Both the position numbers and the translations under genes were made by a program. From Vibrio vulnificus CMCP6 (GTDB lineage Bacteria > Pseudomonadota > Gammaproteobacteria > Enterobacterales > Vibrionaceae), in NCBI RefSeq assembly GCF_000039765.1, contig NC_004459.3, forward strand, positions 360,001-392,000: a DNA stretch of 32,000 bases, given 5' to 3'. Shown one piece after another: positions 6,773 to 30,297 of this stretch. Each line of letters starts with the position of its first letter. Positions within the stretch are counted from its first letter, which is position 1. Below the pieces are notes generated by a model, which saw only the letters and a list, made by a program, of their open reading frames with translations, did no database searches and was not told the origin of the DNA.

Positions 6773-7117
6773 TTAGACACTTTCAGCGGCTGATCTAACT
6801 GCTTTAACGATTGAAAATGGTCTTATCTCGTCATTGGAGAAATGAACCTTATAACAAGGATGTGATGCCCATACACCATTATTTTGACGTTTCTCGTAGG
6901 CAACACTGAAAGCTGTAATCAATCGACCATTTAGCTCATAACCAGGTGAGTTATCACAGTATCTTACGTATACATCTTTGAGTGCTTCATATAGCTCACC
7001 TGCCTGAATTAATCCGCTTGATAGCTGTTCTTCCTTCTGCTCGGTGAAATAGCTAATAGCGTCGCCTTGTTTCTTAAATAGCTTCCCTGCAATTGTGACT
7101 GATTTTGCTTTGCCCAT
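6773..7117 (-). CDS. Small hypothetical protein (114 aa) upstream of the OLD nuclease
   Basis: ORF with a GGATAA-type RBS context. Same strand as the OLD gene, 112 nt upstream of it. The pattern is loosely reminiscent of DUF3223/DCL-type small domains, but I cannot support that. Confidence 0.55.
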   Translation of the reverse strand: MGKAKSVTIAGKLFKKQGDAISYFTEQKEEQLSSGLIQAGELYEALKDVYVRYCDNSPGYELNGRLITAFSVAYEKRQNNGVWASHPCYKVHFSNDEIRPFSIVKAVRSAAESV

Positions 7118-7281: not shown

Positions 7282-7392
7282 TTTGGGGCAAAGCTATGTT
7301 TGCCGTGATTGGCATGCTTTGTGATTGGCATGCCTAGCGAAATTGAGTGGCGCTGATTTTAAGCTACTTGCCCTATTCCCACGAATGGAAAT
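7282..7392 (+). repeat. Junction-family copy b: leader plus one (degenerate) hairpin, abutting the IS remnant
   Basis: 7282-7374 aligns with the array leader 20527-20601 at about 80 percent by eye, plus an internal ~17-nt duplication (TGATTGGCATGC twice). Hairpin 7375-7392 is ATTCCCA-CGAA-TGGAAAT (two changes). Confidence 0.7.
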
Positions 7393-7975
7393 TAACTCTT
7401 TACGCCTCTAGGCTTACCTCGTGACTCAAATGCCATAGAGAGTGCCTTTCCTGTCATCTTGCTATCGGGAGAGACTGACATCGCCCAAACAATTGGCTTT
7501 CTCGCGAATAGGTCGATGACAACAGCAAGATACATCCAGCGCTGACCTGTCCAGACATACGTCACGTCTCCTACCCAGACTTGGTTGGGAGCAGTAACGG
7601 CAAACTGTCGAGATAGATGGTTTGGGATCTCTACATGCTCTTGTGATGTTTTTCGATAACGGTGCTTCAATGTTTGGCAGCTTACCAGGCCTAATAATTT
7701 CATCACCTTAGAAGCTCGATAACGTGCCAGTTTTACACCTTGGGCCGTTACCATGTCGGCAATGCTTCTCGCACCCGCAGAGCCATTGCTTGCCGTGTGA
7801 ACTTCTTTAATGAGACTCTTGAGTTTCACCAGCTCAGGGGAAACACGTTTGGGGCGACAACGCCAGTATTTGTAGCTGCTACGCTGGACACTGAACACAT
7901 GACACAAGGTGGTTACACTAAAGCTCTGCCTGAGTTTCTCGATTATCGAGAGCTGTTCAGCGAGTCCGACATCAA
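7392..7975 (-). pseudogene. IS3-family transposase OrfB, disrupted and truncated
   Basis: The -1 frame reads [16 protein letters not shown] then a stop. The expected continuation IIEKLRQSFSVTTLCHVFSVQRSSYKYW is in another frame, which indicates an extra 1-nt indel. The first DDE Asp region (VWVGDVTYV) is present. The ORF ends at ..ESRGKPRGVKS, before the HSDQG second-Asp motif. Confidence 0.8.
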
Positions 7976-10235: not shown

Positions 10236-10649
10236 ATGAAAGTTATCCCTATCTTAGCAAGCGCTGGTATTACAGGCTTTGAAAGCCCTGCTGCTGAATA
10301 CAGACAACTAGGAATGAGCCTTGATGAACTGCTAGTTGAGCATCCAAGTGCTACATTCATCGGACAAGCAATGGGGGAATCTATGCAAGAAATTGGCATT
10401 TTTGATGGTGACTTGTTGATTGTAGATCGTCACGTTGCCGTCCAAAACCTTGATGTAATCGTGGCCAATTATAATGGTGAGTTCGTTTGTAAAATGCTAG
10501 ATATGACACGTCGATCACTCTTATCTGCAAATGAAACAATGATGCCTATTTGTATTCATGCTCAAGATACATTTTCGATTGAAGGTGTAGTGATTCGATC
10601 TATCCGTTGTCACCGCCCAAGCTATTTACTCTCATCTCGTAGAAAATAA
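10236..10649 (+). CDS. umuD: UmuD-like S24 peptidase, translesion polymerase V accessory subunit
   Basis: FESPAAEY...LLVEHPSATF...GESM...GDLLIVD...GEFVCKML matches UmuD, including the Ser (GESM) and Lys (CK) dyad and an Ala-Gly cleavage site near the N-terminus. Confidence 0.9.
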   Translation: MKVIPILASAGITGFESPAAEYRQLGMSLDELLVEHPSATFIGQAMGESMQEIGIFDGDLLIVDRHVAVQNLDVIVANYNGEFVCKMLDMTRRSLLSANETMMPICIHAQDTFSIEGVVIRSIRCHRPSYLLSSRRK

Positions 10650-11905
10650 TGTTTGCCCTAGTTGATGCTAATTCCTTTTATTGTAGTGCTGAGCAAATTT
10701 TTAGACCCGAGTGGAGAGGTAAGCCCGTAATCGTTCTGTCGAATAATGATGGCTGTGTCGTTGCAGCTAATCGTCAAGCTAAAGAAGCAGGTATAGCAAA
10801 GTTTAAACCTTACTTTGAAGTCAAAGCGTTGTGTGAGTTGAAAGGTGTAATTGCTCTATCATCTAATTATGAACTTTACGCAGATTTGTCGTCCAAAATG
10901 ATGGATGTTATCGGGCGGTTTGCGCCTGAGCAATATATATACTCCATTGATGAATCATTTCTTTCCTTTCATCGCTGCTTTCCTGCCATTAAAGACTTAC
11001 GAGAACATGGCTCTTTAATCCGACGAGCCGTTTGGAAAGAGTGTCGATTACCAGTATGTATAGGTATGGGAACAACGCTAACCCTCGCCAAAATTGCCAA
11101 TCATGCAGCTAAAAAAATTCAAGGCTGTAAGGGCGTTTGCGTTATCGACAATGAACATCAGCGTACCTCTATATTAAAGCAGCTAGAAGTTGGTGATGTA
11201 TGGGGGGTGGGCAAAAAAATATCAACACGATTAAAACATATGGGGATTAACTCGGCTTATGATTTGTCTCAGTATGCCCCAGAACAAGCACGTCGAGAAT
11301 TTTCAGTCGAAGTTGAAAGAACCGTTCGTGAATTAAATGGTGTCGCTTGCAAGGGCTGGGACACAGCTAGAGCTGATAAAAAGCAGATTTACTCAACTCG
11401 TAGTGTTGGAACAAGAATCACCGACCTTGAACTACTGAAGCAAGCACTAAGTAAACACGCCGCTATAGCAGCACATAAAGCACGAAATCAAAAGTCGCTG
11501 TGTAAAGCTATGCTCTGCTTTGCTTCCAATTCACCATTCGATGATAAACCTCAGAGCTTCCGTATAGTTCATCATTTTGCTTATCCAACTGCTGACTCAA
11601 TGCAGTTGGTCAAAATTGCTACACAGGCAGCAACACAATTGTTCAAACCTGGTGTACGTTATTACAAAATTGGCATCGGCTTGATCGATCTAGTTAATGG
11701 GCAGCACGAACAATTAGATCTGTTAAATCAAACTCCGAGTAATGATAAGTTAATGAAAGTGTTTGATAGTCTTAATAATCGGTATGGCACTGATACGCTT
11801 TTTGTTGGTTCCCAAGGCATAGAGCAGAAATGGAGCATGCGGAGAGAAATGCTTACTCCGCAATATACAACCAACTGGCTAGATATACCTAAAGTAAGGT
11901 GTTAA
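10649..11905 (+). CDS. umuC: UmuC, Y-family DNA polymerase V catalytic subunit
   Basis: MFALVDANSFYCSAEQIFRPEWRGKPVIVLSNNDGCVVA...SSNYELYADLS...YSIDESF closely parallels E. coli UmuC. The start overlaps the umuD stop (TAATG). Confidence 0.95.
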   Translation: MFALVDANSFYCSAEQIFRPEWRGKPVIVLSNNDGCVVAANRQAKEAGIAKFKPYFEVKALCELKGVIALSSNYELYADLSSKMMDVIGRFAPEQYIYSIDESFLSFHRCFPAIKDLREHGSLIRRAVWKECRLPVCIGMGTTLTLAKIANHAAKKIQGCKGVCVIDNEHQRTSILKQLEVGDVWGVGKKISTRLKHMGINSAYDLSQYAPEQARREFSVEVERTVRELNGVACKGWDTARADKKQIYSTRSVGTRITDLELLKQALSKHAAIAAHKARNQKSLCKAMLCFASNSPFDDKPQSFRIVHHFAYPTADSMQLVKIATQAATQLFKPGVRYYKIGIGLIDLVNGQHEQLDLLNQTPSNDKLMKVFDSLNNRYGTDTLFVGSQGIEQKWSMRREMLTPQYTTNWLDIPKVRC

Positions 11906-12845: not shown

Positions 12846-13388
12846 ATGGCATTCGTTAGAAAATCTGGTAGAAAAACTCAAACAACTACAGAATTTGAAG
12901 ATTTGTCTACACCTGAACATCTAATAGCACTTGCTGAAGACAAGGGCTTAGAAACTGACCCTGTCAATGTATCTGAATTAGCCAAACATCTAGGGATTAC
13001 CGTTAGATACGAGCCAATGCAAGATGAAGAATCAGGCTCGCTTAAAAAGGAGAAAAAGTCAGGTAGTTGGGTAATGACCGTTAATTCATTACACCATCCG
13101 CATAGGCAAAGGTTTACAATAGCCCACGAAATTGCACATCGAATTCGTCATGCTGCTAACAATGATTGCTTTGAAGATACAACTTTCTTTAGAAATGGGG
13201 AAACAAACTGGATGGAAGCTGAGGCCAATGATTTTGCAGCCTCACTATTGATGCCTAAAGATGCTTTCGATAATTTCATAGCCAACGTATCATCAAAGGT
13301 TGAAGATGTTGCTATGCACTTCCAAGTATCTTCTCATGCAGTTCGAATTAGAGCCAAAGTTCTTGGTTATGACGGACATAATCTATGA
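12846..13388 (+). CDS. ImmA/IrrE-family (M78) zinc metallopeptidase, P4 Gop-like
   Basis: HExxH motif in FTIAHEIAHRIRH, plus the downstream family signature EAEANDFAASLLMP. Confidence 0.85.
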   Translation: MAFVRKSGRKTQTTTEFEDLSTPEHLIALAEDKGLETDPVNVSELAKHLGITVRYEPMQDEESGSLKKEKKSGSWVMTVNSLHHPHRQRFTIAHEIAHRIRHAANNDCFEDTTFFRNGETNWMEAEANDFAASLLMPKDAFDNFIANVSSKVEDVAMHFQVSSHAVRIRAKVLGYDGHNL

Positions 13389-14459
13389 GTGAATTTGTCT
13401 ATTTCCCGATCATAAAAACTAGAGATGGCGAACTCCGCTGTTTTGAACACATCAATGATGATGATTTTTCAAAGATTTTGCCAATTTACGAACTAACCAA
13501 ATCGAGAAAAACAAAAAAAGCACCTGATGGTGATATATATCGCCGTATGAAGCAAATTGCTGAAATTCAGAAGAAGCGACCATTTATACTTGATTTGAGT
13601 ACAAACGAAAAATATATCAACCCTCAGATTGAGCAATTGTTATCAGAACACAACGGCTTTAAAGAGTGGCAGTATTTTCTGTTTGATCTACATTGCGACT
13701 TAAACATCATCCCGATGGTTCACTTGTATGAAGATGATGACGGTAAGTTCGAAGACGTTGAAGAATTCGTAAGAAGTGCTTCTGCAAGAACTAATTGTCT
13801 TGCGGTTAGATTGCCATATGACTTAAGTGACGAAGAAGTTGAATATTATTTAACCCCTATAACAAGAAACCTGAACGAAAATTGTAAACTCTACGTAATT
13901 CTAGATGCTGAATTCGTAAGAAAGAAAGCCATTAATGATGTAGTTGATACTTTCCTTGAAGCATGCTCGGGTACGGAGTCTTTCGCTGATAAAATAGAAG
14001 ACGTTGTAATGCTCTGCTCTAGTTTCCCATCGAATGTTGCTCAAACTGGTGGCGAAGCATATTGCAGGTGAGTTTAGAATCTGTGAAGAAGATATCTATC
14101 AGGGTATTAGTGAAGAGTTCCCAATCAAATATGGCGACTACGTTTCAATTAACACCGAACAAATTGAAATGAAAGGCGGTACTTTTGTACCTAGGATTGA
14201 TATTGCATCTTTAGACGGAAAATCGTTCACCTATAAAAGATACCGTCGAAACAATGGTGGGTATGTTAGAGCCGCAGAGCACACCGTCAGAGATACAACA
14301 TCATATAAGCCGCTTGGAGTGTGGGCTGATGAAGAGATCCAAGCAGCAGCAAATGATAATCCATCAGGTATTAGCCCTGCATTTTGGATATCAGTTCGCA
14401 TGAACTACTACATTAAAAGTCGAATTTTACTCAGAGAATCAGACGATTCTTCGTTTTAG
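13385..14459 (+). pseudogene. Beta-protein family (phage P4 Beta-like, PF14350-type) gene split by a frameshift near 14050-14070
   Basis: The N-terminus FVYFPIIKTRDGELRCFEHI is the typical Beta-family start (YxPILKxxxGExxAL). ORF 13385-14071 and ORF 14034-14459 are adjacent frames that join as ..CSSFPSNVAQTGGEA / IAGEFRICEEDIY..YGDY.. The combined ~358 aa fits the family length. An ATGA overlap links it to the peptidase gene. Confidence 0.65.
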
Positions 14460-15062
14460 TAATGACGGAGCTTTCTTTGTAATTGTGTATATGTCATCCG
14501 ACGTCAAATGAAGGGTGGTTTCTTGTTTCAACAGTTTTGAAGCTACCCCATATCTTTCATTAAAATCGTTTCTTGATAACTGTCTTAATGACTCTAACGT
14601 ATTGTTTTTTGATACGTAGTCGCATAATTCGTGCTTCGATCTTAAATTGCTTCCTTTCGATAGAGCACTCAACTTTTGCACACTTAACGCACTGGCTAAC
14701 ACTCTTTTATCGTGTCGTTTGAACTGTTTTGATTGGCGAACATGAGTAATTTTGCCATTTTCGACCAGAAAGATGCCAACATCTCTTGAAATCGTTGCTC
14801 GTACTTCAGCCAGATTGCTTGGTTCACACACAACAAAGCAAAAATCAAAAAACTTTTTATAACTTTCAATTTGATAATTCAACCTAGATACAGTGTCACG
14901 AGCACCTTTTATTTCAAAGGCAGTTAAGTAGCCATCATCCAGCAATGCTAGATCCGCTCGTCTTTCACCAAATTGAAATGAAAATTCAGAACCAACAACA
15001 AAATTTTCATACTTTTCTAGAAAGTACCTTACTATTAGTTTTTTAATTTCTAGCTCTGTCAT
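14439..15062 (-). CDS. PD-(D/E)xK-type nuclease-like protein (sce7726/MmcB-like)
   Basis: ERRADLALLDDGYLTAFEIKGARDTVSRLNYQIESYKKFFDFCFVV shows the D...E-x-K restriction-endonuclease-fold core, followed by the DT..RL..Q...Y motif I associate with that family. Convergent with the Beta gene, overlapping its 3' end by 21 nt. Confidence 0.65.
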   Translation of the reverse strand: MTELEIKKLIVRYFLEKYENFVVGSEFSFQFGERRADLALLDDGYLTAFEIKGARDTVSRLNYQIESYKKFFDFCFVVCEPSNLAEVRATISRDVGIFLVENGKITHVRQSKQFKRHDKRVLASALSVQKLSALSKGSNLRSKHELCDYVSKNNTLESLRQLSRNDFNERYGVASKLLKQETTLHLTSDDIYTITKKAPSLLKRRIV

Positions 15063-15639: not shown

Positions 15640-18201
15640 CTAAATGATGCGGCATTTGCCATTTTCTAAGTCGTTTATGAATTTTTTGTACTTACCAACT
15701 TCGGTAGTATCATTTTCAATGTATAGAACGGAAATTAACTCATTTCTTTTATATTTTCGTTCATGAATCACCTGTTTAATAGGTGTATTTTTAATTATGA
15801 TACCTTTAACGTTTTTTCGTATATTGTCTACTTCTTTCATATTAAGCCTAGCATGAGCAACGTTCTCAACGGTTATTTTATCTAGTAGATTATCGAGTTC
15901 TTTAGCTAGTGATACCTTTTTATCAGTATTTTTTGAACGAATCATTCTAATGTACATTATTCTTATAAGAATGACCTTAGTTGAGGTTGATGAGAGAACA
16001 TCTAGGCTATGAACTAAGTCTGATAGCGATATTGCTTGTTCATCTTTACCTTCATCATATAGTCTTATTATTTCACGTTCAAAAATCTCAGCATCGATTA
16101 TTTCTGGTGTTGAGCTATAATTTTGAATACCTTGAAAGTATAAAGACCTTGCTTCTTCATTCTGTGGTTCCAAATATGTAGAAAACTTATTGCACAAAAA
16201 TTCAAATTCAGGGTCTATAATTTCTCTATCTAATGATTTAATAAAGTTTAACGTAGATATCCACCTTTCCTTTTTAGACTTATTTTGTAAATCAAGCACA
16301 AGACACATGATTAAGTTGTGGAAAAAGTCAATATTTAGTGATTCTGATTGTTCAATTATTTTTTGTATACATTTTAGATATTCCAAAAATCTATCATCAT
16401 CAAGACATTGAGATAGGTTTATAAAAGATTTTATATGAGTGTCTTTCAATAGGTATGGGTTGGAATTTTTATTGGAAGTGTGGATTTTTTCACTCTCATT
16501 AACCTTTAGGAATATAGAATCCCAAAATAAATCACAGTCTTCATCTTTTTCATATCGCATAATAGAAGGAACTATAACATCCAGTCCAACAGCATACTGA
16601 CATGCACTATCTATATGCCGTTCAGAATTCATATTATCTAGCTCTTGAAGAATCATACTTGCAATATATAATACTTCCATAATTGAATTCTTTATATCAA
16701 TTAAAGGTTCATTTTCAACTGATATAGATAATTCTTGAATTATTGATTTACAAAGTCGTATTATTTCATCGGTATGATTATTATTAGACTTTAACAGAGC
16801 TAGACAATAATCTACTGTTGCTCGATACTTCAATGAATCTAGCTCTTCGCCACTAACTAAAATTGATAGCTCTTCGATAGCTGGCTCTATAGAGTTTGTT
16901 TTAAAAAAACTAAACCCAAGCATCCAAGAAACTTCTCTTTGATCTATTTTTTCTACGTCTTTTAATAACTTGCAATACTTAATAGTATCAGTATATTTAG
17001 CATTAAATAGCGTACAAGCAGCTAGCTTGTAACGAATAAAATCCAACATTTCATCGTTGATTTCAGACTCAATTAATGTCAGAAACTGCTTTTCAGCGGC
17101 TATATATTCTTTTTTATTGAATAGTTCTAGTGTTGAGTCAATAGATACATAACTATTTAGACTTAGACTACTTAACCAGGTTTCAGATAGACTTGCTTCA
17201 ACTACTCTATTTTTAAATGCTACAGATTCGTCAGCTTCAGATGGAGCAGCAATGCCCGCTAAATATAACTTAGACCTTATGTGATCGGATACTGGTTTAT
17301 TGTAGTGCATTGAAAATAAACCACTTTGTAAATCTTTATCAGCAGATGCAAGAACTCTTATATGATCTATTGGTGGTCGATCATAATTTGAAAGATATAG
17401 GTCTTTTATTACAGAGTTAATTGAATCAACATCAATATTTATACCAGCTTTTACCTTGTCTTCTATAGTAGATAAAACTTCCCATGACATTCTAGGATTC
17501 CCCTGAATCCAATAATAAATACGCTCAATGACAATATCGTTCAGTTCTAATTTTGACTTCTCGACAAATAAACGAAACTCGCTAAGGCTAAAATCAGTTA
17601 AGAATATTTTCTGACCAATGTTAAATGGTGATATAGATTTATCTTTTATTATCTCACTTGGTTCGGCAACACCAGATATTACATATGTTAAACGCTTTAA
17701 CTCTGGGAAGTTTACTCGCTCGAAATATACACTTCTAATATGTGCGAATATTTTATCAGAGTAATCTGATGAAGTAAGGGAATCAATTTCATCAAGGTTG
17801 ATAATTAGTTTTCCAGAAATTTTATTTAGTATCTTTCTTATTTCAAATCCATGTTCTTTATGTGATGGTATTTTTCTGTTGTTTCTTCTGTTTTCTATTT
17901 CTTCTTCTATATCTTCCAATTTCTCATAGTTAGATTCAATGATTGTGTCTATTATACTTCTAAAACACTCTCTTGCTGTATCAAAACGATTAGATAGATC
18001 TATATAAGCAAAGATATCATTCTCAGTTTCAAGTTTTCTTTTTGTATGGATTAATAAATTTGTTTTACCCATTTGTCTAGATACTAGTATGTATCCAGGT
18101 CTCCCCATATCATTGACTATTTGCTCAATCTGCCTATCTGCGTCTCGTTCTATATATAATTCTCTAGGAATTATTGTTTCTGATATTAATTTTTTAGTCA
18201 T
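15640..18201 (-). CDS. STAND-type ATPase with AAA_35-like N-terminal NTPase domain and long helical (TPR-like) C-terminal region, 853 aa
   Basis: GYILVSRQMGKTNLL (Walker A, Lys46). LIINLDEIDSL (Walker B). SPFNIGQKIFLTDFSLSEF and YYWIQGNPRMS match the PF14516 AAA-like signature (RQMGKTSL / SPFNIG / L.DF..E / GhPyL) as I remember it. The remaining ~600 aa is Leu/Ile/Glu/Lys-rich and repeat-like. Confidence 0.8.
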   Translation of the reverse strand: MTKKLISETIIPRELYIERDADRQIEQIVNDMGRPGYILVSRQMGKTNLLIHTKRKLETENDIFAYIDLSNRFDTARECFRSIIDTIIESNYEKLEDIEEEIENRRNNRKIPSHKEHGFEIRKILNKISGKLIINLDEIDSLTSSDYSDKIFAHIRSVYFERVNFPELKRLTYVISGVAEPSEIIKDKSISPFNIGQKIFLTDFSLSEFRLFVEKSKLELNDIVIERIYYWIQGNPRMSWEVLSTIEDKVKAGINIDVDSINSVIKDLYLSNYDRPPIDHIRVLASADKDLQSGLFSMHYNKPVSDHIRSKLYLAGIAAPSEADESVAFKNRVVEASLSETWLSSLSLNSYVSIDSTLELFNKKEYIAAEKQFLTLIESEINDEMLDFIRYKLAACTLFNAKYTDTIKYCKLLKDVEKIDQREVSWMLGFSFFKTNSIEPAIEELSILVSGEELDSLKYRATVDYCLALLKSNNNHTDEIIRLCKSIIQELSISVENEPLIDIKNSIMEVLYIASMILQELDNMNSERHIDSACQYAVGLDVIVPSIMRYEKDEDCDLFWDSIFLKVNESEKIHTSNKNSNPYLLKDTHIKSFINLSQCLDDDRFLEYLKCIQKIIEQSESLNIDFFHNLIMCLVLDLQNKSKKERWISTLNFIKSLDREIIDPEFEFLCNKFSTYLEPQNEEARSLYFQGIQNYSSTPEIIDAEIFEREIIRLYDEGKDEQAISLSDLVHSLDVLSSTSTKVILIRIMYIRMIRSKNTDKKVSLAKELDNLLDKITVENVAHARLNMKEVDNIRKNVKGIIIKNTPIKQVIHERKYKRNELISVLYIENDTTEVGKYKKFINDLENGKCRII

Positions 18202-19721
18202 GATCTAGCCTTTAAAATGTCTAATGACTCACGATAGTGGCTTTTTAACTTCCTAGGTGAACCTTCTATAAGTTCAATATCAACATTAGGTAGGTTATCA
18301 ATATTCAAGTGTCTGTTTATTATATTGTCTAATTCAATTAGATCTTCTTTATTCCAGTAACCAAGAGAGAATATACTAAAGTTGTCTGATATCTTTTCAA
18401 ACTCCGTTCCAACTAGAGAGTCAGGCTCAAATATAGAAGATAATACTAGTTTGAAATTTTTAATTTCTTTTAATTTTACCAATATAGAATAGATGCATTG
18501 CGAAAATTCTTTAAACGCACAATGATCACTGATTGGTATTTCCTCAATGAATAAAACAAAACTATCAGATTTACATTTGTCTCGTATGATTAACTCTATA
18601 TTATTTAAAATTACAGATATTCGTTCAGACTCATTGATTATGACATTTTCATCGAGATCGTAGGCAATACTTGTAAACATTTGTTGAATGTTTTCATTTA
18701 TAGATGTACCTAAAGAAATATATTGAAAGTCAACTCCGTTTTTGAATAACAGTCTTTGAATAATAGCAGTTTTTCCAACACCAGATGGGCCACAAATCCA
18801 TAGTCCTGATAATCTGAATTTATTTAAAACTATTTGGTCTACATCTCTATGTAGGTAGAAATTTTCTTGATTAGGGGTATATAAATCGAAAAGGACATCT
18901 TCCTTGGAGTCATCTGTTTTTGCTGATGAACTTGTTAACTTTATTTTGCAGAAGTCATTTCTTTCAATAAAACCCCAGAGTGCTTTGTGTGATTGGCTAT
19001 CTTCATTTTCTGGCTTTACGATAGATGAATGATCTGTTCCTGCTATAAGTTTAGCTTTACCAAAGTAGCGTGCGGCTGACTCCTTGGATACAACTCGGTG
19101 TTTTGAATGATTTAACAAGGTCAAATGAAAAGGAGACCTATTTTCATAGCACTCTAAACCGACAATATCAAGCTTAGATGATTGCAATAACTCTTTAAAT
19201 CTACCATCAAGATCATCTAATAATGCACTTCCCCAAGCTAGTTCTTGAGCTAGTTGGTTTTTGAATCGTTTTGCAATCCAACCGAAGCTAGATGCCATCC
19301 GTGAGCCAAAAGAAGGAGATGCATATAGTGCCAATCCAATTTTCTTTCCAACAAATTTGTCTGATTTTGACTCTAAAATATACCTTGCAATTATTCCACC
19401 AGTACTGTGAGTTACGAAAATGATATTACTTTTACTTAGAGCTGGACTTCTCATGTGTTTGTCGGTTTGGCTAATGTGATCCCAAACTTCGTCTGAGCAG
19501 TTTTGAACTCCATAATCATTTGAGTCTATTGATGTATAAAAGTTGGCTAGAAATATATCAATTCCATTAAATCTAGGATCGCTTGCGATTAAGTCAGGCC
19601 AGTAGCGCTGATTCTTATCGTTGAACCAGCATTTTTTACTACTAGAAAATAATCCATGGATAAATATTATGACAGTGTTACTGTTTGAGTACCTTAACCA
19701 ACCATTTTCTTGGACGTTCAA
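18198..19721 (-). CDS. Alpha/beta-hydrolase (DUF676/lipase-like) fused to a P-loop NTPase, 507 aa, TTG start
   Basis: VIIFIHGL (oxyanion region). FVTHSTGG nucleophile elbow (Ser106). GTDHSSIV (His231). Then GPSGVGKT (Walker A, 311-318) and FVLFIEEI (Walker B-like). The stop overlaps the next gene's start (ATGA at 18198-18201). Confidence 0.8.
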   Translation of the reverse strand: MNVQENGWLRYSNSNTVIIFIHGLFSSSKKCWFNDKNQRYWPDLIASDPRFNGIDIFLANFYTSIDSNDYGVQNCSDEVWDHISQTDKHMRSPALSKSNIIFVTHSTGGIIARYILESKSDKFVGKKIGLALYASPSFGSRMASSFGWIAKRFKNQLAQELAWGSALLDDLDGRFKELLQSSKLDIVGLECYENRSPFHLTLLNHSKHRVVSKESAARYFGKAKLIAGTDHSSIVKPENEDSQSHKALWGFIERNDFCKIKLTSSSAKTDDSKEDVLFDLYTPNQENFYLHRDVDQIVLNKFRLSGLWICGPSGVGKTAIIQRLLFKNGVDFQYISLGTSINENIQQMFTSIAYDLDENVIINESERISVILNNIELIIRDKCKSDSFVLFIEEIPISDHCAFKEFSQCIYSILVKLKEIKNFKLVLSSIFEPDSLVGTEFEKISDNFSIFSLGYWNKEDLIELDNIINRHLNIDNLPNVDIELIEGSPRKLKSHYRESLDILKARS

Positions 19722-19846
19722 AATATGCCTTAAAGCTTTGATTTTTAATTATGATACAGCGCTCGCATCAATAAAATCAATAAACAGTGTCAGTCCTGTT
19801 TAACAATTCTTAAATTTCATTATTTAAGGAAAAATGCGTTAGGTCA

Positions 19847-20345
19847 TCAAGATTCCACTCTAATCGCTCTATGTAGGGCTGTAACACCCCTGTCAAAATC
19901 CTTACCATATCTATCAAAAACAATTGAGCCATTCTCACGCCCAACATTGCCCTGTACAAAGCAGCTCTCAACGGTGGAGTCTTGCTTTAAGTAGCTGATA
20001 AAATTATGTAAAAAAAATAAAAGTCATGCCCCTTGTCAAAACTAAGATTTGATTTAAATAGAGCAAACCAATTCGAAGCGTTACCACCTAATCCATTTGT
20101 TTTCTGCATAGAGTAGTTCTGGGAAAATTCCCTCTTCATTTGATGCCACATAATCTAAAAAGCCTAATTCGATTAGCTTTGAATGGATTGGGACTAAACG
20201 TCTAGCTGAATCATTTTCTAGTCTCTGGCCTTCAAGAGTGTCAGAGAAGCTAAGACAGCAAATATTGTCGTCTTTTTGTATGTCTGTACAGTGATGCTGT
20301 GCTAGCTTATTGAGTCTTGCACCAGAGAGTTCTCTCTGAAATTAG
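19847..20345 (-). pseudogene. Tyrosine recombinase (phage-type integrase) remnant, C-terminal catalytic domain only, at least 2 frameshifts
   Basis: Minus-strand frames read SGARLNKLAQHHCTDI..SARRLVPIHSKLIELGFLDYV..IFPELLY, then GGNASNWFALFKSNLSFDKGH, then FLHNFISYLKQDSTVESCFVQGNVGRENGSIVFDRYGKDF. This is the R..(VPIH)..HxxR..Y integrase pattern, with stops between segments and substitutions at catalytic positions (HNF instead of RHTF; GR instead of GH). Confidence 0.75.
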
Positions 20346-20526: not shown

Positions 20527-21691
20527 TGGGGCAAAGGTGTGTTTGCTATGATCGGCATGCTTTGCGAAATTAAGTGGCACTGATTTGAGATTAACTACCC
20601 CATTCCCACGCATGGGAATCAGTCAGAATCGGCATACTCAATGAAACCGAGAGTCGCTGATGTGAAGTTGACTCCCCCATTCCCATGCATGGGAATCAAC
20701 CTAGATCGGCATCGTCAGTGGAAACCTGTGCCGCTGATGTGAAGTTGACTACTCCATTCCCACGTATGGGAACCAACCTAGATCGTTATGGTCAACGAAA
20801 TCCAGTGCCGCTGATTTGAAGTTGGCTACTCCATTCCCACGCATGGGAATCAGTCAGAATCGGCAGGTCAATAAAATCGAGAGCCGCTGATGTGAAGTTG
20901 ACTACCCTATTCCCACGCATGGGAATCAGTCAGAATCGACAGGTCAATGAAATCGAGAGCCGCTGATGTGAAGTTGACTCCCCCATTCCCATGCATGGGA
21001 ATCAACCTAGATCGGCATCGTCAGTGGAAACCTGTGCCGCTGATGTGAAGTTGACTACTCCATTCCCACGTATGGGAATCAACCTAGATCGTTATGGTCA
21101 ACGAAATCCAGTGCCGCTGATTTGAAGTTGGCTACTCCATTCCCACGCATGGGAATCAGTCAGAATCGGCAGGTCAATAAAATCGAGAGCCGCTGATGTG
21201 AAGTTGACTACCCTATTCCCACGCATGGGAATCAACCTAGATCGGTATCGTCAGTGAAAACCAGTGCCACTGATTTGAGTTAGTTACTCTATTCCCACGC
21301 ATGGGAATCAGTCAGAATCGACAGGTCAATGAAATCGAGAGCCGCTGATGTGAAGTTGACTCCCCCATTCCCATGCATGGGAATCAACCTAGATCGGCAT
21401 CGTCAGTGAAAACCAGTGCCACTGATTTGAAGTTGGCTACTCCATTCCCACGCATGGGAATCAGTCAGAATCGGCAGGTCAATGAAATCGAGAGTCGCTG
21501 ATGTGAAGTTGACTACCCCATTCCCACGCATGGGAATCAGCCATGTTCGGCATACTCAATGAAATCCAGTGCCGCTGATGTGAAGTTGACTCCCCCATTC
21601 TCACGCATGGGAATCAACCTAGATCGTTATGGTTAACGAAATCAAGTGCCGCTGATTTGAAGTTAGCTGCTCTATTCCCACGTATGGGATT
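20527..21691 (+). repeat. Leader (20527-20601) plus tandem array of 15 hairpin-bearing 76-77 bp units
   Basis: Hairpins ATTCCCA-YGYA-TGGGAAT start at 20602, 20679, 20756, 20833, 20909, 20985, 21062, 21139, 21215, 21291, 21367, 21444, 21520, 21597 and 21674. The conserved block is CGCTGATKTGAAGTTGRCT. 20679-20928 is repeated at 20985-21234 with one mismatch. Confidence 0.95.
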
Positions 21692-21986: not shown

Positions 21987-22697
21987 ATGAACAATAAAGT
22001 TAAAGATATCATTGATAATATATTAAAAAACATTTTCAACCATTTAGCGACAAGAAATTCATTCACTCTTTACTACAATGAAGTTTTTCAAGAGTTAGAA
22101 ATATCACTTGCTCAAGATATACCTAACCCCAACATCTCTTATCCCGCAATTAACTCAATATACTTAACAGAACACTGGCAAAACAAAGGAGTTTTGAACT
22201 ATTTAGTAGAGCGGTTACTTGAGCTAGAGTGGGTAAATGGTGTTGCAATTCAATCAATAACCAACCCAATTTTAGGAATGAGCTTGCTACACAACCCCAA
22301 ATGGATTCCGATTATAAATACTAACCAGTTTCATCGGCTGGATCGAATTATCCCGCTCGTGAGAGATAATAAAGAATACTACGATTTATTTTTACAAACA
22401 TTCGAAAAGAAAAGGCCTGCATTCAGTACATTAGATCTATCTATACTAAAAGAAAGTTATATAAGAGTTACTAGTAGAAAAGAAACAGACATACCGTATC
22501 TAACAGATGACCAACTATGTGGATTCGCTCCAGAATATGATGGTACTTCGCTAATAAAACTACCAGAGTGTCATTATAATAATTATAAAAATCAAATCAC
22601 AGCATTAGCTGAAAATCACGGTATATCAGCGCATCACTACATCGGTATGTCTAAATTTTTTGATAGTTTTATAACTTTAAAAAACCCACGTAGTTAA
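21987..22697 (+). CDS. Hypothetical protein (236 aa), no recognisable motif
   Basis: Single ORF lying between the array end and the solitary hairpin at 22828. Very AT-rich. Confidence 0.6.
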   Translation: MNNKVKDIIDNILKNIFNHLATRNSFTLYYNEVFQELEISLAQDIPNPNISYPAINSIYLTEHWQNKGVLNYLVERLLELEWVNGVAIQSITNPILGMSLLHNPKWIPIINTNQFHRLDRIIPLVRDNKEYYDLFLQTFEKKRPAFSTLDLSILKESYIRVTSRKETDIPYLTDDQLCGFAPEYDGTSLIKLPECHYNNYKNQITALAENHGISAHHYIGMSKFFDSFITLKNPRS

Positions 22698-22827
22698 ACT
22701 ATGTTATAAAAAAGTAAAAACGAATAAAACTCACCTTATTTAAGGCATTAACATTTCGTATAAGTAACGCAATATCAGTTGAGATCACTTCCGATTTTAG
22801 GAATGGCAATTACAGCTAGCTAGTTCA

Positions 22828-22845
22828 TTCCCATGCATGGGAATG
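22828..22845. repeat. Solitary hairpin ATTCCCATGCATGGGAAT with left half-unit only
   Basis: Identical to the array B-type hairpin. The left flank ccgattttag..gctagctagttc loosely matches the unit's ctgatttgaagttggctactcc. The right flank GGCTTATTC resembles the array's terminal flank TGCTTTATTC (21692). Confidence 0.75.
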
Positions 22846-22994
22846 GCTTATTCAATATGTGTCGGTTTGTATGTGCGAAACAGAGCCAAAACCTAAACAT
22901 TAACCCGAAACAGAAACTTAAGGTCACTAGGACTGTAACTTCCTTCTAGCGCACGGCTCAGAAACAGTATTCACAAGCCTATGTTTAGAAAACA

Positions 22995-23289: not shown

Positions 23290-25128
23290 CTACTTGTTCA
23301 GGATAAAAACTGGCAAACCATCAGAACCAATATAACTTTTTTCACCAGCCCGCCTTGCTTTGATCGATCTTTTCGATGCAGCATTATCTTTTTCATATTC
23401 TTTAGGGCTTAATACTTTCAGTGCTTTCTTTTTTATGCCATCTGTTAAACGAAGATACTTATCAACACTAGGTGGAACAATCGCATTGCCATCTTTAAGT
23501 TTCACACCAAATATCTCTATGTAAAATTCAATATCTCGTAATACTTCATATACTGACGAGCGATCTACCCTCCAAAAGCGGTTAGGTTTAGTTAGCACTT
23601 TCGCCTTTGTCTTATCAAACTTGCCGTTATGGTATGAGTCGATAAATTCTTCTAACTGAAAATCCATGTGCCAAAATGGGAGTATTAACTTACCCGACCA
23701 ATCAGACACGTGTAGGCTTTCAATCAACCGCATATTGTACACTTTAATTGAATATGCAATTAGCTGACTATCTTCATTGAAACGATTGATATCAATGAGC
23801 GTCTTTGTTCTTCGATCAAAAGGCGTAGAGAATGGTGGCAAAACAACAAAATCTCCAAAAGAACTCAAACAATTTCTAATTGCAGCAATGAGTTTCGTCA
23901 TTTTATTGTGTTGGACGGTTTGTAAGCACACTAATGAGATAGCCAATACTATGCAAGACAAAACAAGTAATTGCTGAGATGAAGAGGAACTTTTTCTAAC
24001 CTTTTCAATAAAGTTAATAAATTCCTGTCGTGCTCGTTCATGAGCATTAGATATTATAATTCCGTAGGTATTGTCATCAACATGCTTACTTTTATCAATA
24101 ACACTTTGTAATAGTGTAGGGTCAAAACCTTCAAAATCAGCCATGTGCTCATGCAATATCAACAAGATATACTCAAAGCCATTATTAGCTGCAACCGTAG
24201 GAAAACCTCCGACTAACTCATTGATAGCATGTATATTTTTCAAGGTGTGTTGGCTGGTTTCTTTTACCAAGTTAGATTCTAGATAATTAAACACCTCAAT
24301 AAGTGAATCAGAAGCGTCAGTTTCAGTACCCGTTTCAAAATTATCTTGTATCTTTTCAAAGGAAAGAAGGAAATTGTCCATTTTTAGCATTACTTCATCA
24401 GCATCAGAAATAGTCAACTCTTCAAAATCAATGCCTTTTATAGCTTTTCTTAATACACCGCCAGCCTTAACCACTGATCTAATCTGGGGAAGTAATTTAG
24501 CATTTTCACGACCAACTAAATCAGCTTGAAACTTTTCAAGCAAATTTTTATTTAACTCGTCACAATATGAAATTGATTTCCATCCCTTATTCGAGGCCAG
24601 ATCGCTTTTTATATCTCCACTGACTCCCCTTGGAAGCACTAGAGCCAGTTTTTGGCGAATGAATGATTCAACATCACAGCTTTTAGATTTTGTAGCTTTT
24701 CTTACATCATCGCTTCCTTGCAAGATCTCAATCAACCAAGTCCTCATAGTAGACAATGGCGATTCTCTATCAATCCTACCTTCTAGTTTGCCTATTGCTG
24801 AAATTGCGTATGGTATGCACCAATAACTGATGAATATCGCCCTATTTTTCTGTTGATTAGCTTCATCCCTAGCTAAAGGGCCTAGTAGCAAATTAAGTTC
24901 CTGCATTGCTCCTAAAAGCGTCCCTATCGTTTGATCTATGTATAACCATATGTCGGGATCATCTGAAGATAAAGCAGAAGTTATAAGAACGCATTTTTCT
25001 TTGAATATCTCATTTTGACTCTCAAATTCTGAGCGACTATCAATAGCAATCTTTTTGTTTTTACTAAGCTTCAGATCCAGTAACTCGAACACAAAGTCAA
25101 CAGTCTGAGCAGTATTTGGAATCAACAT
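23290..25128 (-). CDS. Large hypothetical protein (612 aa), no recognisable motif
   Basis: Uninterrupted ORF with one hydrophobic stretch (LLVLSCIVLAISLVCL). Monocistronic context. Confidence 0.7.
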   Translation of the reverse strand: MLIPNTAQTVDFVFELLDLKLSKNKKIAIDSRSEFESQNEIFKEKCVLITSALSSDDPDIWLYIDQTIGTLLGAMQELNLLLGPLARDEANQQKNRAIFISYWCIPYAISAIGKLEGRIDRESPLSTMRTWLIEILQGSDDVRKATKSKSCDVESFIRQKLALVLPRGVSGDIKSDLASNKGWKSISYCDELNKNLLEKFQADLVGRENAKLLPQIRSVVKAGGVLRKAIKGIDFEELTISDADEVMLKMDNFLLSFEKIQDNFETGTETDASDSLIEVFNYLESNLVKETSQHTLKNIHAINELVGGFPTVAANNGFEYILLILHEHMADFEGFDPTLLQSVIDKSKHVDDNTYGIIISNAHERARQEFINFIEKVRKSSSSSQQLLVLSCIVLAISLVCLQTVQHNKMTKLIAAIRNCLSSFGDFVVLPPFSTPFDRRTKTLIDINRFNEDSQLIAYSIKVYNMRLIESLHVSDWSGKLILPFWHMDFQLEEFIDSYHNGKFDKTKAKVLTKPNRFWRVDRSSVYEVLRDIEFYIEIFGVKLKDGNAIVPPSVDKYLRLTDGIKKKALKVLSPKEYEKDNAASKRSIKARRAGEKSYIGSDGLPVFILNK

Positions 25129-27227: not shown

Positions 27228-27470
27228 TTAAATGTCACTTTCAGCAAGGTTGAATTGCAAATAAAACAATGCAAGGGTGCTTTTATCTTTTAAACCATCA
27301 TTTATTATATTAATCGCTTTTCTCTGTGTGCAAAACAGCATTTCACTTAAGGCTTTACTAGATGCCTTGTTTCTGTATGTATAACCATTTTTGATTAAGA
27401 TGGATGACACTTCACTTCCGCTCAGAAATGGTTTTGATTCGATTAAATTATTAACACTATGCATGTTCAT
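27228..27470 (-). CDS. Small hypothetical protein (80 aa) overlapping the helicase gene's end
   Basis: The start overlaps the 3' end of 27457-29955 by 14 nt, which suggests an operon. Confidence 0.5.
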   Translation of the reverse strand: MNMHSVNNLIESKPFLSGSEVSSILIKNGYTYRNKASSKALSEMLFCTQRKAINIINDGLKDKSTLALFYLQFNLAESDI

Positions 27471-29955
27471 TTACCTTCTTATTATTATTTATATTATTAT
27501 CTGTTTTTTCTGCTGCCGCTTTTTCTGCCGCGACTTCTGCTTCAACTCTAGCTCTTTCACTTTCTCTTCTCTTGTCATCAACAAGAACGAACTGCGCTTG
27601 AATTTCGTCTATTGCATTGCTTTCAAACAAAGCTGACTTGGCAAGCTTGTGCAACGTGTAGATTTTACCGTTTGTGGTGTTACCTCTTCTGTTTCTCTTC
27701 TCTACAAATCCAAGTGCAGTCATGATTTCTTTAAGTGCTCTTGATGCTGCCTTCTTACCTTTTGTGTCTGAGCGCTTCTTGCCTGCCTTTAATTCACATA
27801 GTCCAGCGGCGTTAAAAGTTGATCTACGCTGTTTGTCAACGATATGGTTGTAAACTGCTGTTGTGTCCTCAACTACAATTTCAGTGTCTACACTAAGCTC
27901 TTTAACTCCAAGCGCATCAGCAAGAACTTTCATAGCTTTTGCCTCTTTTGAGCTGGTGCCTCCATTAAGCAAGTTGCCCTTAAACGCTTTCAGAAAATCT
28001 TTTTTGAAAACTTTGTTAAACTCATACACATCTTCATCAACACGCTCAGTGCTAATGCGCAGTCTTTGTGCTATCTCGTACTTCTTAACTGCGTAGCTTT
28101 CATCTGTTGTCAGTTCTTCTTTTTCTTTTAGTTCTGCAATTGATACATTATTGAGATTAAGTGCTTCAGTAGTAGCTTTCATCTCTGACTTTTCGAAAGC
28201 TTCTTTTGATACCTTATCTGCTTTTGAAGCTGCCTTAATTTCTTCAAAATCAACATCAACACGCTCAACATTAAAACCTAGGAGCTGTAGTGTTTTAGCT
28301 AGCGTAAATCGAAGATTACTTTTAAGTAATTCTTCTCGAACCAGAAACTCAGCTTCTAGTTCGCTGTTGATATTGCCTTTGATTGCATCAGCACGATAAT
28401 CAGTGTAAGCAGCCGCTTGTGAGAATGTCGGTACAGCAAAAGTCAACCTGATTGCTGTTCTAAGTCTTCTTGCTAATTGCACCAGTGCTGTTGGCTGAAG
28501 AACGCGATTACAAAGCACTATGACTTCATCAGCATGATTTGCTGTAATGCTGAAACCTTCTCTTAAACATGGCGATACAATAACAGTGCGGTATTTAACG
28601 ATCTCCTTGTTTGGATTCTTAAGAAATGCACGTTGTTCTTTCCCGCCTTTATTTTCGCTGTGTACGACCAGGATTCCCGCTTTTAGCGCTTTATTGTAGT
28701 CAACCTTGCCTTTCGAGTTTATATAGCCAGATTGCTCGACTAGACGGTCGATTTCGCCCTTTCTGTCGCAAGCAATGAACATCTGACTTTTACCAAGTAA
28801 CTTTTTAGCTATTAGCTCCTGATTCATCACCTCAATACTTTCGACTGTAGTAGCGATATCTCTGTATACGTTTTTACGCATATTCACAGTTTTAACTTTG
28901 CGACCAAAAGCTTTTGCATATCTCACAGAAATCGCGTCAGTAGCATCAGCGTCCATGAAGATCACTTTCTTGTTGCTTCTTATAGCTTGAGCTAGTTCTG
29001 CCCTAATCGTTCTTTTAGCTAACTCGCTGATATAGTCAGAGCGAGGATCGAAGATAGACTGTAAAACCTTTTCGCACTCATCAATGATGATTGTGTCCGC
29101 TTCTTTTACTGTCTCTGCTGTAAAAGCGTTGGTAAGAGAGTTGACAGTAGCACTTAGATGAGTCGCATTTTCAATGACATGCATTTGTTCATCATAAAAC
29201 GCTGAGGCAACATTTGATGGTGTGTGCTGCTTAACCACAGCGATAAGACCAGTTATAGTGGCTGTCTTGCGTCCTTTACTAGCTTCTCTTTCAATTAGAG
29301 CTTTTGCAAACTCAGTTTTGCACGTACCTGTAGGTGAGCGCAGAACAACCACATTGCGCTGGTTCTGAGCGAAAACTTCCATCTCCATGTCGTGAAGTTC
29401 GTACGCATTGTGGTCAGCAGTAAGAGTGACAGATTTGATGATCTCTTCCATCAGGTCTGAATGAGATTCTTCGTAGATAGCTTCTGCTTTTTCTGTGCTA
29501 ACTCCAGTCCATTCCATCAGATTTCTCACTGCTTCTTCATCCGATGAGATCATAGAAGGAACTAGTGATTTAACAGCCTTAGCGCTCTCTCTAAGAAGCA
29601 ACTGAGAATTGAACTGGTTAAAAGCTTCGCAAACGTATTTCGCAAAACTTACATCACTGTAACCAGTAGTAATTTTTGTGTCAGTGCTTATGTCATGCAT
29701 ATTTAGCTTATGCTTAATCGCAGTAAGAGCAATGCTTGATGCATACTTAGCTTTGAAGTCGAAGTTGATAGCTGTAATGACCTTATCTTTAGCGTCATGC
29801 TTTCTGATAGTTAAAACAAGATGGCTTTGAGTTGTAACTACTATTCTGTCTGTAGAATTGAATGCTTCTGCTTTAGCTAGAAGTGTTTCATCACCTGATG
29901 ATATGAAGAGTTGAGTGTCTACCGCACTTTCTCCTTTAATGCAACTGTACGTCAT
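27457..29955 (-). CDS. SF2 (DEAD/DExH-like) helicase, candidate plasmid replication initiator/origin-binding helicase, 832 aa
   Basis: Motif I VVLRSPTGTCKTEF. Motif II TIIIDECEKV. VIFMDADA. Later VIVSPCLREGFSI and QLARRLR (motif VI-like). Basic, coiled C-terminal third. Adjacent to an AT-rich repeat region. Confidence 0.75.
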   Translation of the reverse strand: MTYSCIKGESAVDTQLFISSGDETLLAKAEAFNSTDRIVVTTQSHLVLTIRKHDAKDKVITAINFDFKAKYASSIALTAIKHKLNMHDISTDTKITTGYSDVSFAKYVCEAFNQFNSQLLLRESAKAVKSLVPSMISSDEEAVRNLMEWTGVSTEKAEAIYEESHSDLMEEIIKSVTLTADHNAYELHDMEMEVFAQNQRNVVVLRSPTGTCKTEFAKALIEREASKGRKTATITGLIAVVKQHTPSNVASAFYDEQMHVIENATHLSATVNSLTNAFTAETVKEADTIIIDECEKVLQSIFDPRSDYISELAKRTIRAELAQAIRSNKKVIFMDADATDAISVRYAKAFGRKVKTVNMRKNVYRDIATTVESIEVMNQELIAKKLLGKSQMFIACDRKGEIDRLVEQSGYINSKGKVDYNKALKAGILVVHSENKGGKEQRAFLKNPNKEIVKYRTVIVSPCLREGFSITANHADEVIVLCNRVLQPTALVQLARRLRTAIRLTFAVPTFSQAAAYTDYRADAIKGNINSELEAEFLVREELLKSNLRFTLAKTLQLLGFNVERVDVDFEEIKAASKADKVSKEAFEKSEMKATTEALNLNNVSIAELKEKEELTTDESYAVKKYEIAQRLRISTERVDEDVYEFNKVFKKDFLKAFKGNLLNGGTSSKEAKAMKVLADALGVKELSVDTEIVVEDTTAVYNHIVDKQRRSTFNAAGLCELKAGKKRSDTKGKKAASRALKEIMTALGFVEKRNRRGNTTNGKIYTLHKLAKSALFESNAIDEIQAQFVLVDDKRRESERARVEAEVAAEKAAAEKTDNNINNNKKVNEHA

Positions 29956-30125
29956 TTTAAAAACTGCCTTTCCCTCTATGGGGATTATAATTATATTTAT
30001 ACTTTACCCTCTCAGCATAAGTGAATTATTTTCACTTTACAAGTTACAATCTTATAAATTAACTATTTTTATTAATATAGAAATTAAAGGTTAGTTGATT
30101 ATTATTTTATTATACATGAGTAGCT

Positions 30126-30297
30126 GGTTTTTATTTTATGCAAAATGCTTCGCATGTTTGCTTGCTCTATCGGTTGTTTACTTGTTACTTGTTTTTTTAT
30201 TCACACTAACCTATGGACTATGTAGTGTTGATTTATATATAAAATAAGTAAAACATAGTCCACACCTCAAACCTTATCTAGCAAGGCTTTAAGGCAG
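30126..30297 (+). repeat. Copy 1 of a ~170 bp direct repeat (origin-like), containing a 10-bp inverted repeat around an AT-rich core
   Basis: Aligns with 30627-30803 (offset 506-507) at high identity by eye. TGGACTATGT (30214-30223) and ACATAGTCCA (30253-30262) flank 29 nt of AT-rich DNA. Confidence 0.85.

Follow-up and report, generated by a model that had tools for sequence, protein, structure and literature searches.

A translationally coupled gene pair of Vibrio vulnificus as a candidate two-protein, Avs-like STAND immune system

The stretch of DNA analysed here, referred to as the window, comprises 32,000 nucleotides of Vibrio vulnificus CMCP6 (contig NC_004459.3, positions 360,001 to 392,000 of the forward strand), and all coordinates given are positions within it. 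Its central feature is a pair of overlapping minus-strand genes. Gene 1 (18198..19721; WP_011078492.1) is an open reading frame (ORF) of 507 aa with a TTG start that encodes a putative effector-carrier protein, while gene 2 (15640..18201; WP_011078491.1) is an ORF of 853 aa with an ATG start that encodes a putative sensor protein. The TGA stop codon of gene 1 and the ATG of gene 2 overlap by four nucleotides as ATGA (18198..18201, minus strand), the junction reading ...AGATCATGACT... with an AAGG 7 nt 5′ of the gene 2 ATG, and this overlap, which was read directly, translationally couples the two genes. The start region of gene 1 (19719..19731, minus strand) was likewise read directly and consists of the TTG (19721-19719) and a Shine-Dalgarno-like AAGG (19731-19728) separated by a spacing of 6 nt. 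This start falls at the same alignment position in an alignment of 30 homologues and gives the 507 aa listed in RefSeq, with one GenBank record giving 514 aa.

Both accessions represent the exact proteins of V. vulnificus (CMCP6 among others) and carry only the generic RefSeq labels 'ATP-binding protein' and 'AAA-like domain-containing protein'. Copies with more than 90% identity are present in V. cholerae, V. alginolyticus, V. cortegadensis and further Vibrio isolates, and because such near-identical copies occur across Vibrio species the pair appears to have spread horizontally in recent times. The operon has a GC content of 31.4% compared with 38.3% for the remainder of the window and 37.5% for the window as a whole. 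An earlier sequence-only reading of this DNA had described two genes overlapping by ATGA within an operon more AT-rich than its surroundings, and both descriptions are borne out, including the GC content of the two single lines on which the latter was based (23.3% and 45.0%). The motifs that it listed are also found at the residues given, namely IFIHGL at residue 19, THSTGG at 104 (Ser106), DHS at 230 (His231), GPSGVGKT at 311 (Lys317) and FVLFIEEI at 388 in gene 1, and SRQMGKTN at 41 (Lys46), LDEID at 136, SPFNIG at 191 and FLTDFSLSEF at 200 in gene 2.

The product of gene 1 is organised in two parts. In the AlphaFold2 (AF2) model, which has a mean predicted local distance difference test score (pLDDT) of 88 and was built from a 30-sequence alignment, residues 1-255 form a DUF676/PGAP1-like alpha/beta-hydrolase, the putative effector domain (18957..19721, minus strand; Pfam, AF2). 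A disordered linker at residues 261-272 then leads to an ATPase module consisting of a nucleotide-binding domain (NBD) and a helical lid at residues 273-507 (18201..18905, minus strand; AF2, hhalign, Foldseek). Pfam assigns residues 14-157 to DUF676 (PF05057), a putative serine esterase family, with a score of 24.4 bits where 20.3 is required (2.5e-5), and weak P-loop matches are found at residues 299-428. The fusion of a lipase-like alpha/beta-hydrolase to a P-loop domain proposed by the sequence-only reading is upheld, with DUF676 scoring above its cut-off and the model displaying the two-part layout. In the 30 homologues H105, S106, G108 and G109 of the nucleophile elbow HSTGG (Ser106) are invariant, as are H231 and E190.

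The ATPase module of gene 1 is a compact AAA+ domain in the AF2 model, with five strands and a helical lid and without a winged helix. Invariant in the same 30 homologues are G311, G314, G316, K317 and T318 of the Walker A motif GPSGVGKT, E394 of the Walker B motif IEE, and P489 and R490 of a GSPR motif, and the Walker motifs are also intact across 150 diverse relatives of gene 1, all of which have the Walker B glutamate. An exhaustive search returned at least 360 clusters of this ATPase at 50% identity, and among the 150 of them that were listed it occupies the C-terminus, apart from a small number of fragmentary entries. The gene 1 family profile matched the phospholipase PlaB (6zth) weakly with its hydrolase half (E 1e-5) and Cdc6/ORC weakly with its ATPase half, while the structural matches of the model (Foldseek) were the esterases/lipases 7xrh and 6wpy and, for the ATPase, RFC, ORC, Cdc6 and the archaeal AAA+ proteins 2fna/2qen. 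Single-sequence searches of the PDB were uninformative.

Gene 2 encodes a larger protein (AF2 model, mean pLDDT 83.4) for which at least 1185 homologues were found, with lengths conserved at about 850-870 aa. Residues 1-335 form an AAA_35 NTPase followed by a winged helix (17197..18201, minus strand; Pfam, AF2, invariant columns), with residues 14-247 matching AAA_35 (PF14516) at 62.3 bits against a cut-off of 27 (4.4e-17); the ATPase module of gene 1 falls below the AAA_35 gathering threshold. In the model, five strands carrying the Walker A and B motifs are followed by a lid, then by the winged helix (258-330) and finally by a helical solenoid (340-805). Invariant positions are dense over residues ~1-345 in an alignment of 38 homologues and include GKT at 45-47 (K46), DEID at 137-140 (with the Walker B DE at 137-138), ISPFNIG at 190-196 and a GNPR motif (G234-x-P236-R237), the motif preceding Walker A being LYIERDADRQ.

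The solenoid of gene 2 (residues 340-805, ~470 aa; 15787..17184, minus strand; profile, AF2) is all-helical and resembles tetratricopeptide repeats (TPR), the family profile matching TPR structures with an E-value of 6e-42, and it is barely alignable among the 38 homologues. The AAA_35-type NTPase and the helical, TPR-like tail had both been recognised by the sequence-only reading, and these profile and model results agree with it. The top Foldseek matches of gene 2 were Avs3 in complex with phage terminase (8dgc, E 1e-8), the STAND-TPR protein 6mfv and archaeal ORC2 (1w5t). Gene 2 has the full architecture of a STAND (NLR-like) NTPase, with NBD, lid, winged helix and repeats, and gene 1 shares that layout for NBD and lid only.

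Beyond the solenoid lies a small C-terminal domain of gene 2 (residues 815-853; 15643..15759, minus strand; conserved columns, AF2) with a beta-beta-alpha-beta fold in the AF2 model (strands at 822-827, 832-837 and 850-852, helix at 838-846). It is conserved across phyla, with nearly invariant columns in the 38 homologues (R819, N820, V825, K837, K839 and C850), with the consensus YGRNE.VKV.Y.DG.....KYKKVE.DI..G.C.I directly following the hypervariable TPR region, and nothing in Pfam matched it. The domain may be where gene 1, or some conserved component of the host or of a phage, docks.

Profile-profile comparison shows the two NTPase modules to be paralogues, with the Walker motifs intact in both families. 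Residues 281-495 of gene 1 align with residues 8-240 of gene 2 over 198 columns (hhalign probability 94.3%, E 9.6e-8), the pairing spanning the pre-Walker 'Y..R..D', the GKT, the acidic Walker B, the strand-4 'SS/SG..P' and the GxPR motif. Comparison of the gene 1 ATPase with the gene 2 NTPase by BLASTP was insignificant, such that the relationship is visible by profile-profile comparison only. The earlier suggestion that each polypeptide carries an NTPase of its own agrees with this homology and with the invariant Walker A and B motifs of both families.

The association of the two genes was followed through 80 genome loci (L006-L085) fetched with the gene 2 profile, of which 75 hold a gene 2 homologue. 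A gene 1 ATPase module lies directly upstream in all 70 loci that have upstream DNA (E 9e-15 to 2e-87), the remaining five of the 75 beginning too near a contig end, and the same arrangement is present in the window and in three independent look-ups (five loci). The gap between the genes in homologous loci is mostly -8 to +12 nt, and the loci derive from Gamma-, Beta- and Alphaproteobacteria, Bacteroidota, Acidobacteriota, Planctomycetota, Myxococcota and Chlorobi, at least six phyla in all. Once duplicates had been removed, 69 loci had enough upstream DNA to match 200 aa of the module, and across these the distance matrix of gene 1 correlates with that of gene 2 (Mantel r 0.86, p 0.001). Gene 1 and gene 2 are obligately syntenic and co-diverging and form one unit; no third conserved gene was found among the 148 neighbouring ORFs of 18 other loci.

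The enzyme at the N-terminus of gene 1 is exchanged on a constant ATPase/sensor chassis. Among the 69 loci this domain is PNP_UDP_1 in 24, a hydrolase in 20, Mrr_cat in 16 and trypsin in four, with single cases of a metallophosphatase and of GT4-conflict, two of unknown type and one left uncategorised, and nitrilase, protein kinase and NUDIX versions occur among metagenomic relatives. Rousset et al. demonstrated that PNP domains of this type act as ATP-nucleosidase immune effectors (bioRxiv 10.1101/2023.01.24.525353), in a clade (Cap17) to which the present ones may belong. By mean pairwise distance, the best-conserved part of the system is the NTPase of gene 2 (0.49), the ATPase of gene 1 is intermediate (0.72) and the TPR solenoid is the most variable (0.80). 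The median pairwise identity of the solenoid is about 0.2 even inside one effector class, with values of 0.20 within and 0.17 between classes, and its divergence is as expected of a receptor engaged in an arms race.

In the window the pair is accompanied by other genes of defence and of mobile elements. Directly downstream of gene 2 lies a gop-beta-cII-like system (12846-15062; PADLOC) made up of an M78 peptidase (12846-13388), a 'beta' gene broken into two ORFs that overlap (13385-14071, matching positions 7-209 of the PADLOC profile, and 14034-14459, matching positions 217-343) and a convergent cII-like/sce7726-family protein (14439-15062, minus strand). The split of 'beta' is a frameshift, leaving either a pseudogene or a gene read through a programmed shift. 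Further away is an Old-family nuclease with AAA_15 and OLD-like TOPRIM domains (4954-6660, minus strand; PADLOC 'Old', 2.4e-55), followed by an ORF of 114 aa with a faint DUF3223/HamC-like match (6773-7117). Upstream of the pair a degraded tyrosine-recombinase fragment (…RRLVPIHSKLIELGFLDYVASNEEGIFPELLYAENKWIRW*; 20081-20340, minus strand) is interrupted upstream by in-frame stops. It has no intact ORF and went undetected by Pfam, but its 86-aa frame shows 44% identity to annotated site-specific integrases (tblastn, E 1e-12) and resembles those of the phage type. The integrase remnant beside the operon and the neighbouring defence genes, in the form of the Old nuclease and the gop-beta-cII-like genes, were both correctly picked out by the sequence-only reading.

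The same reading had also placed the operon in a cassette frame, and this part was not confirmed. No integron-type sites were found, the repeats being limited to a 77-nt tandem array and scattered solitary copies of its core, and no repeat family bracketed the operon, although no dedicated attC model was run. The array (20566-21689) holds 14.7 copies of the 77-nt unit with 80% matches and higher-order periods of 153 and 306, and solitary copies of its ~57-nt core lie at other module junctions (2698-2755, 7340-7396 and probably near 22820-22930). An integron cassette was considered improbable, no attC-like flanks having been seen; the repeat copies at 2698, 7340 and 20566-21689 do not bracket the operon. 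The unit contains a small palindrome, TTCCCACGCATGGGAA, and the array has a GC content of about 0.48, richer than its surroundings. The folding of one unit is not improved over that of shuffled sequence (z -0.59), and an Rfam scan of the window, the array included, returned nothing. The repeat may be an intergenic repeat resembling repetitive extragenic palindromes or miniature inverted-repeat transposable elements (REP/MITE-like), and may have been the source of the cassette reading.

Elsewhere the window contains a MobA/VirD2 relaxase (41-1348), a putative phage structural protein with a LAPAL motif (3013-3861), an rve transposase remnant (7392-7907), umuD/umuC (10236-11905), two large ORFs that matched no family (21987-22697, 236 aa; 23290-25128, 612 aa) and a CyRepA1-like replication protein (27457-29955). 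Upstream of the latter gene are direct repeats of two families (30125-30801; 106 nt with 91% identity and 73 nt with 74% identity), the copies of both being ~506 nt apart, and these may be of iteron or origin type. There is no tRNA gene in the window, which as a whole has the appearance of a composite element, either integrative or mobilisable. A DNA search with the locus and its upstream flank found no match among plasmids.

Other copies of the pair are also carried as cargo. In V. parahaemolyticus it lies between an integrase and AlpA/VapE genes (L001/L002, 5037-15723) on a ~10-kb satellite-like island near rpoD/dnaG, and in Aeromonas veronii it is located inside a prophage replication region. 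The layout of the V. parahaemolyticus island resembles that of phage satellites of the P4-like or phage-inducible chromosomal island (PICI) type, which carry defence hotspots. Around the 18 other loci the commonest neighbour families were ResIII, Methylase_S and phage integrase; next in frequency came N6_Mtase, SWI2/SNF2, resolvase, Fic, HNH and Eco57I.

The pair is probably a self-contained, mobile two-protein STAND/Avs-like immune system, and one likely to provide abortive anti-phage defence. The sequence-only reading had seen in it an effector, an NTPase and a repeat sensor of Avs/NLR-like logic split over two polypeptides, and the synteny, the swapping of effectors, the match to Avs3 and the defence, prophage and satellite contexts all favour this view. 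For the pair itself we infer an anti-phage role, a phage protein as trigger, a hetero-oligomer, a lipid substrate and cell death as the outcome. Gene 2 would be the sensor, with the AAA_35 NTPase and winged helix acting as a nucleotide-controlled switch and with the TPR solenoid and C-terminal domain most likely binding a phage-derived protein, while gene 1 would be the effector carrier, joining a lipase/phospholipase-like Ser-His hydrolase to a minimal NBD paralogous to that of the sensor. Binding of the ligand would open the sensor and lead to its oligomerisation, upon which the gene 1 ATPase would co-assemble with the sensor NTPase into a hetero-oligomer, the hydrolase domains of gene 1 would be clustered and so activated, and a membrane lipid or other ester would be degraded such that the infected cell stops before phage release. 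Membrane or ester hydrolysis is the likeliest output of the V. vulnificus pair because the enzyme is a lipase-like Ser-His hydrolase. Sister systems use the same chassis with an ATP-nucleosidase-type PNP, an Mrr nuclease, a trypsin-like protease or other enzymes.

A tentative extension of this scheme, which we hold possible but unlikely, is that the pair acts as a bacterial sensor/helper NLR in which gene 2, with its ligand bound, nucleates the polymerisation of gene 1, a paralogous 'mini-NBD' protein that lacks a sensor and bears the executioner enzyme. If this is true, NAIP-NLRC4 or the sensor/NRC-helper pairs of plants would have a prokaryotic counterpart here, the signal being amplified by growth of the hetero-oligomer with the effector carrier as a plug-in part that may bear a hydrolase, PNP, Mrr, protease, GT4, kinase or other domain.

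Several observations weigh against an anti-phage immune system or temper it. The neighbour families suggest a defence-island association, the sample being 18 loci with no matched background, and many loci have ordinary metabolic neighbours (e.g. Chitinophaga). A homologue of the gene 2 NTPase was found in none of 50,697 phage genomes (tblastn), and a close homologue is present on one plasmid only. The effector classes track deep clades, indicating that swapping has been infrequent. In gene 1, the match to PlaB is weak and covers only the N-terminal half of the hydrolase domain, and E190 and E193 are candidates for the acidic member of the putative catalytic triad. The hetero-oligomer of the gene 1 and gene 2 NTPases is predicted from their paralogy, and an anti-phage role is one that we infer for every member of the family.

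The main rival is a guard or toxin-antitoxin-like arrangement, in which an intrinsically toxic gene 1 would be kept inactive in a complex with gene 2 until infection or loss of the element, by titrating or degrading gene 2, frees the hydrolase. The pair would then still serve defence or addiction, with activation through release rather than assembly. The tight translational coupling and obligate co-inheritance of the genes are what an inhibitory complex of 1:1 stoichiometry would lead one to expect. Gene 1 has neither a winged helix nor a sensor domain and so needs an external regulator, and the pair is found on mobile elements, where addiction modules are common. Nevertheless the effector gene comes first and the larger 'regulator' second, and the parts of gene 2 available to bind such varied effectors are either constant, as for the NTPase, or independent of effector class, as for the TPR solenoid. 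The invariant Walker B motifs of both proteins point instead to an active nucleotide cycle as in STANDs driven by assembly, and the closest structural relatives are activated by ligand-induced oligomerisation (Lee et al., 2026; PMC13581612). On balance release from a guard is considered unlikely.

More doubtful is a conflict module directed at something other than phage, serving the host element by excluding plasmids, integrative and conjugative elements or satellites, or serving bacterial competition. The window island with its relaxase, replication protein and umuDC would suit such a role, as would the carriage of the pair as cargo of a satellite-like island and a prophage. Against it, there are no secretion signals and no logic of type VI secretion system (T6SS), VgrG/PAAR or immunity genes; an immunity gene would change with its toxin, whereas the NTPase of gene 2 is constant across effector classes and better conserved than the rest of the system, with no sign of the co-variation that links toxin and immunity. 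Moreover, the architecture and fold match those of phage-sensing Avs proteins, and restriction-modification (RM) systems, Old and gop-beta-cII are among the neighbours. A housekeeping function, with an ATP-regulated lipase/esterase on a TPR scaffold in lipid metabolism or stress signalling, is highly improbable. It would account for the generic RefSeq names, the metabolic neighbours of some loci and the fusion of the wider AAA_35 family in cyanobacteria to kinase, CHASE2 and WD40 signalling domains. Nucleases, proteases, PNP and GT4-conflict on the same chassis are, however, incompatible with a single metabolic role, and the patchy, strain-variable distribution, the near-identical copies across Vibrio species, the AT-rich foreign composition and the lack of a conserved housekeeping partner all argue against it. 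Non-defence readings in general fit the effector exchange and mobility poorly.

The family is large, with at least 1185 gene 2 homologues and at least 360 gene 1 ATPase clusters in at least six phyla, and yet it has neither a name nor a model of its own in the available libraries. Another STAND family would in itself be unsurprising; what is distinctive is the obligate pairing of two paralogous NTPases that are both predicted to be active, together with an effector carrier of the plug-in kind. If validated, the reading of the pair as an immune system would extend the NLR-like immunity of bacteria by a widespread branch built on two proteins, in which a sensor STAND hands activation to a separate effector via a shared NBD, a mechanism relevant to how the paired and helper NLRs of eukaryotes arose, and would define the lipase-like DUF676 domain as an immune effector. 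The copies in V. vulnificus, V. cholerae and V. parahaemolyticus are also relevant to phage therapy and ecology in pathogenic vibrios.

Comparison with named systems gave no match to the pair, which has no name in PADLOC v2, NCBIfam, Pfam or the searchable literature. With gene 2, PADLOC v2.0.0 yielded no family at E <= 1, and its matches to gene 1 were weak and confined to the hydrolase domain; neither gene is named in NCBIfam (June 2026), and PADLOC found no named system for other relatives of the hydrolase domain. Literature searches combining AAA_35, PF14516 or DUF676 with defence terms yielded noise or nothing. A catalogue of 589 STAND clades has been published, the main text of which is silent on both AAA_35 and two-gene systems (Lee et al., 2026; PMC13581612). 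The likeness to Lamassu LmuA (4e-5) and to PADLOC PDLC02918 'DUF626_VIII' (5e-7) is limited to the hydrolase domain of gene 1, with no counterpart to the gene 1 ATPase or to gene 2, and Lamassu was rejected with this weak LmuA domain match and no LmuB-like SMC gene among the scanned ORFs of the window. PlaB of Legionella and the DUF676/PGAP1-like serine esterases resemble the N-terminal half of the hydrolase, including the GxSxG elbow. PlaB lacks the P-loop module, the match is weak and partial, and the substrate is not transferable. A T6SS lipase effector with its immunity protein was rejected in that the partner is constant and secretion genes are lacking, as was a replication initiator of the ORC/Cdc6 type given the presence of effector and TPR domains and the swapping of the effector.

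The resemblance to Avs/AVAST proteins, the antiviral STAND NTPases Avs1-5 and Avs7-21 (Lee et al., 2026; PMC13581612) that Gao et al. reportedly described in part in 2020 and 2022, is more extensive. Both combine an effector, a STAND-type NTPase and a large TPR-like sensor that is hypervariable, both are mobile and found in defence islands, and the effectors of the pair (Mrr, trypsin, PNP and others) overlap those at the N-terminus of Avs proteins, with Avs3 as the best PDB match of gene 2. They differ in that the effector of the pair is on a separate protein with its own paralogous and apparently active NBD, which has no winged helix or sensor, gene 2 opening directly with its NTPase (Walker A at residue 45) such that no effector is fused to NTPase and sensor. 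The NTPase is moreover of the Pfam AAA_35 type, DE forming its Walker B motif and GxPR being present as well, and neither protein is matched by the Avs1-5 models of PADLOC v2.

NAIP-NLRC4 and the plant sensor NLRs with their NRC helpers are paired sensor and helper NLRs, and they share with the present pair two paralogous NBD proteins, one bearing ligand-sensing repeats and the other acting as executioner, with a heteromer to be expected. The homology is limited here to the general STAND/AAA+ fold, and the gene 1 module is far more reduced, being without winged helix or repeats, its co-assembly being predicted.

The absence of a named system in PADLOC v2.0.0 and NCBIfam agrees with the sequence-only reading, but the novelty of the pair is tempered by the conceptually similar nSTAND2 two-STAND operon (Kaur et al., 2021). 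This operon, described as ??+STAND+wHTH (winged helix-turn-helix) followed by nSTAND2+wHTH+TPRs+HEPN, is predicted to form a hetero-multimer, with GT4 or HEPN as the variable effector and eroded NTP-binding motifs in the TPR-bearing protein (Kaur, Iyer, Burroughs and Aravind, 2021, eLife; PMC8195603). There the effector is C-terminal on the TPR protein and one NTPase is eroded, whereas here it is N-terminal on the short protein and the Walker sets are invariant in both families. Comparison of one nSTAND2 member (WP_094198012.1) with the gene 1 and gene 2 NTPase families gave hhalign probabilities of 0.06% and 0.23%, respectively. The supplement of the same paper lists one 'GT4+STAND -> TPR' operon of P. 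donghuensis (WP_010223837.1) that has, by its description, the same layout as the pair (PMC8195603); the protein was not found with the GT4 variant as query. As a mobile two-gene operon with a STAND-type NTPase in both products and TPRs on one of them, the nSTAND2 two-STAND operon is the closest published concept to the gene pair of V. vulnificus.

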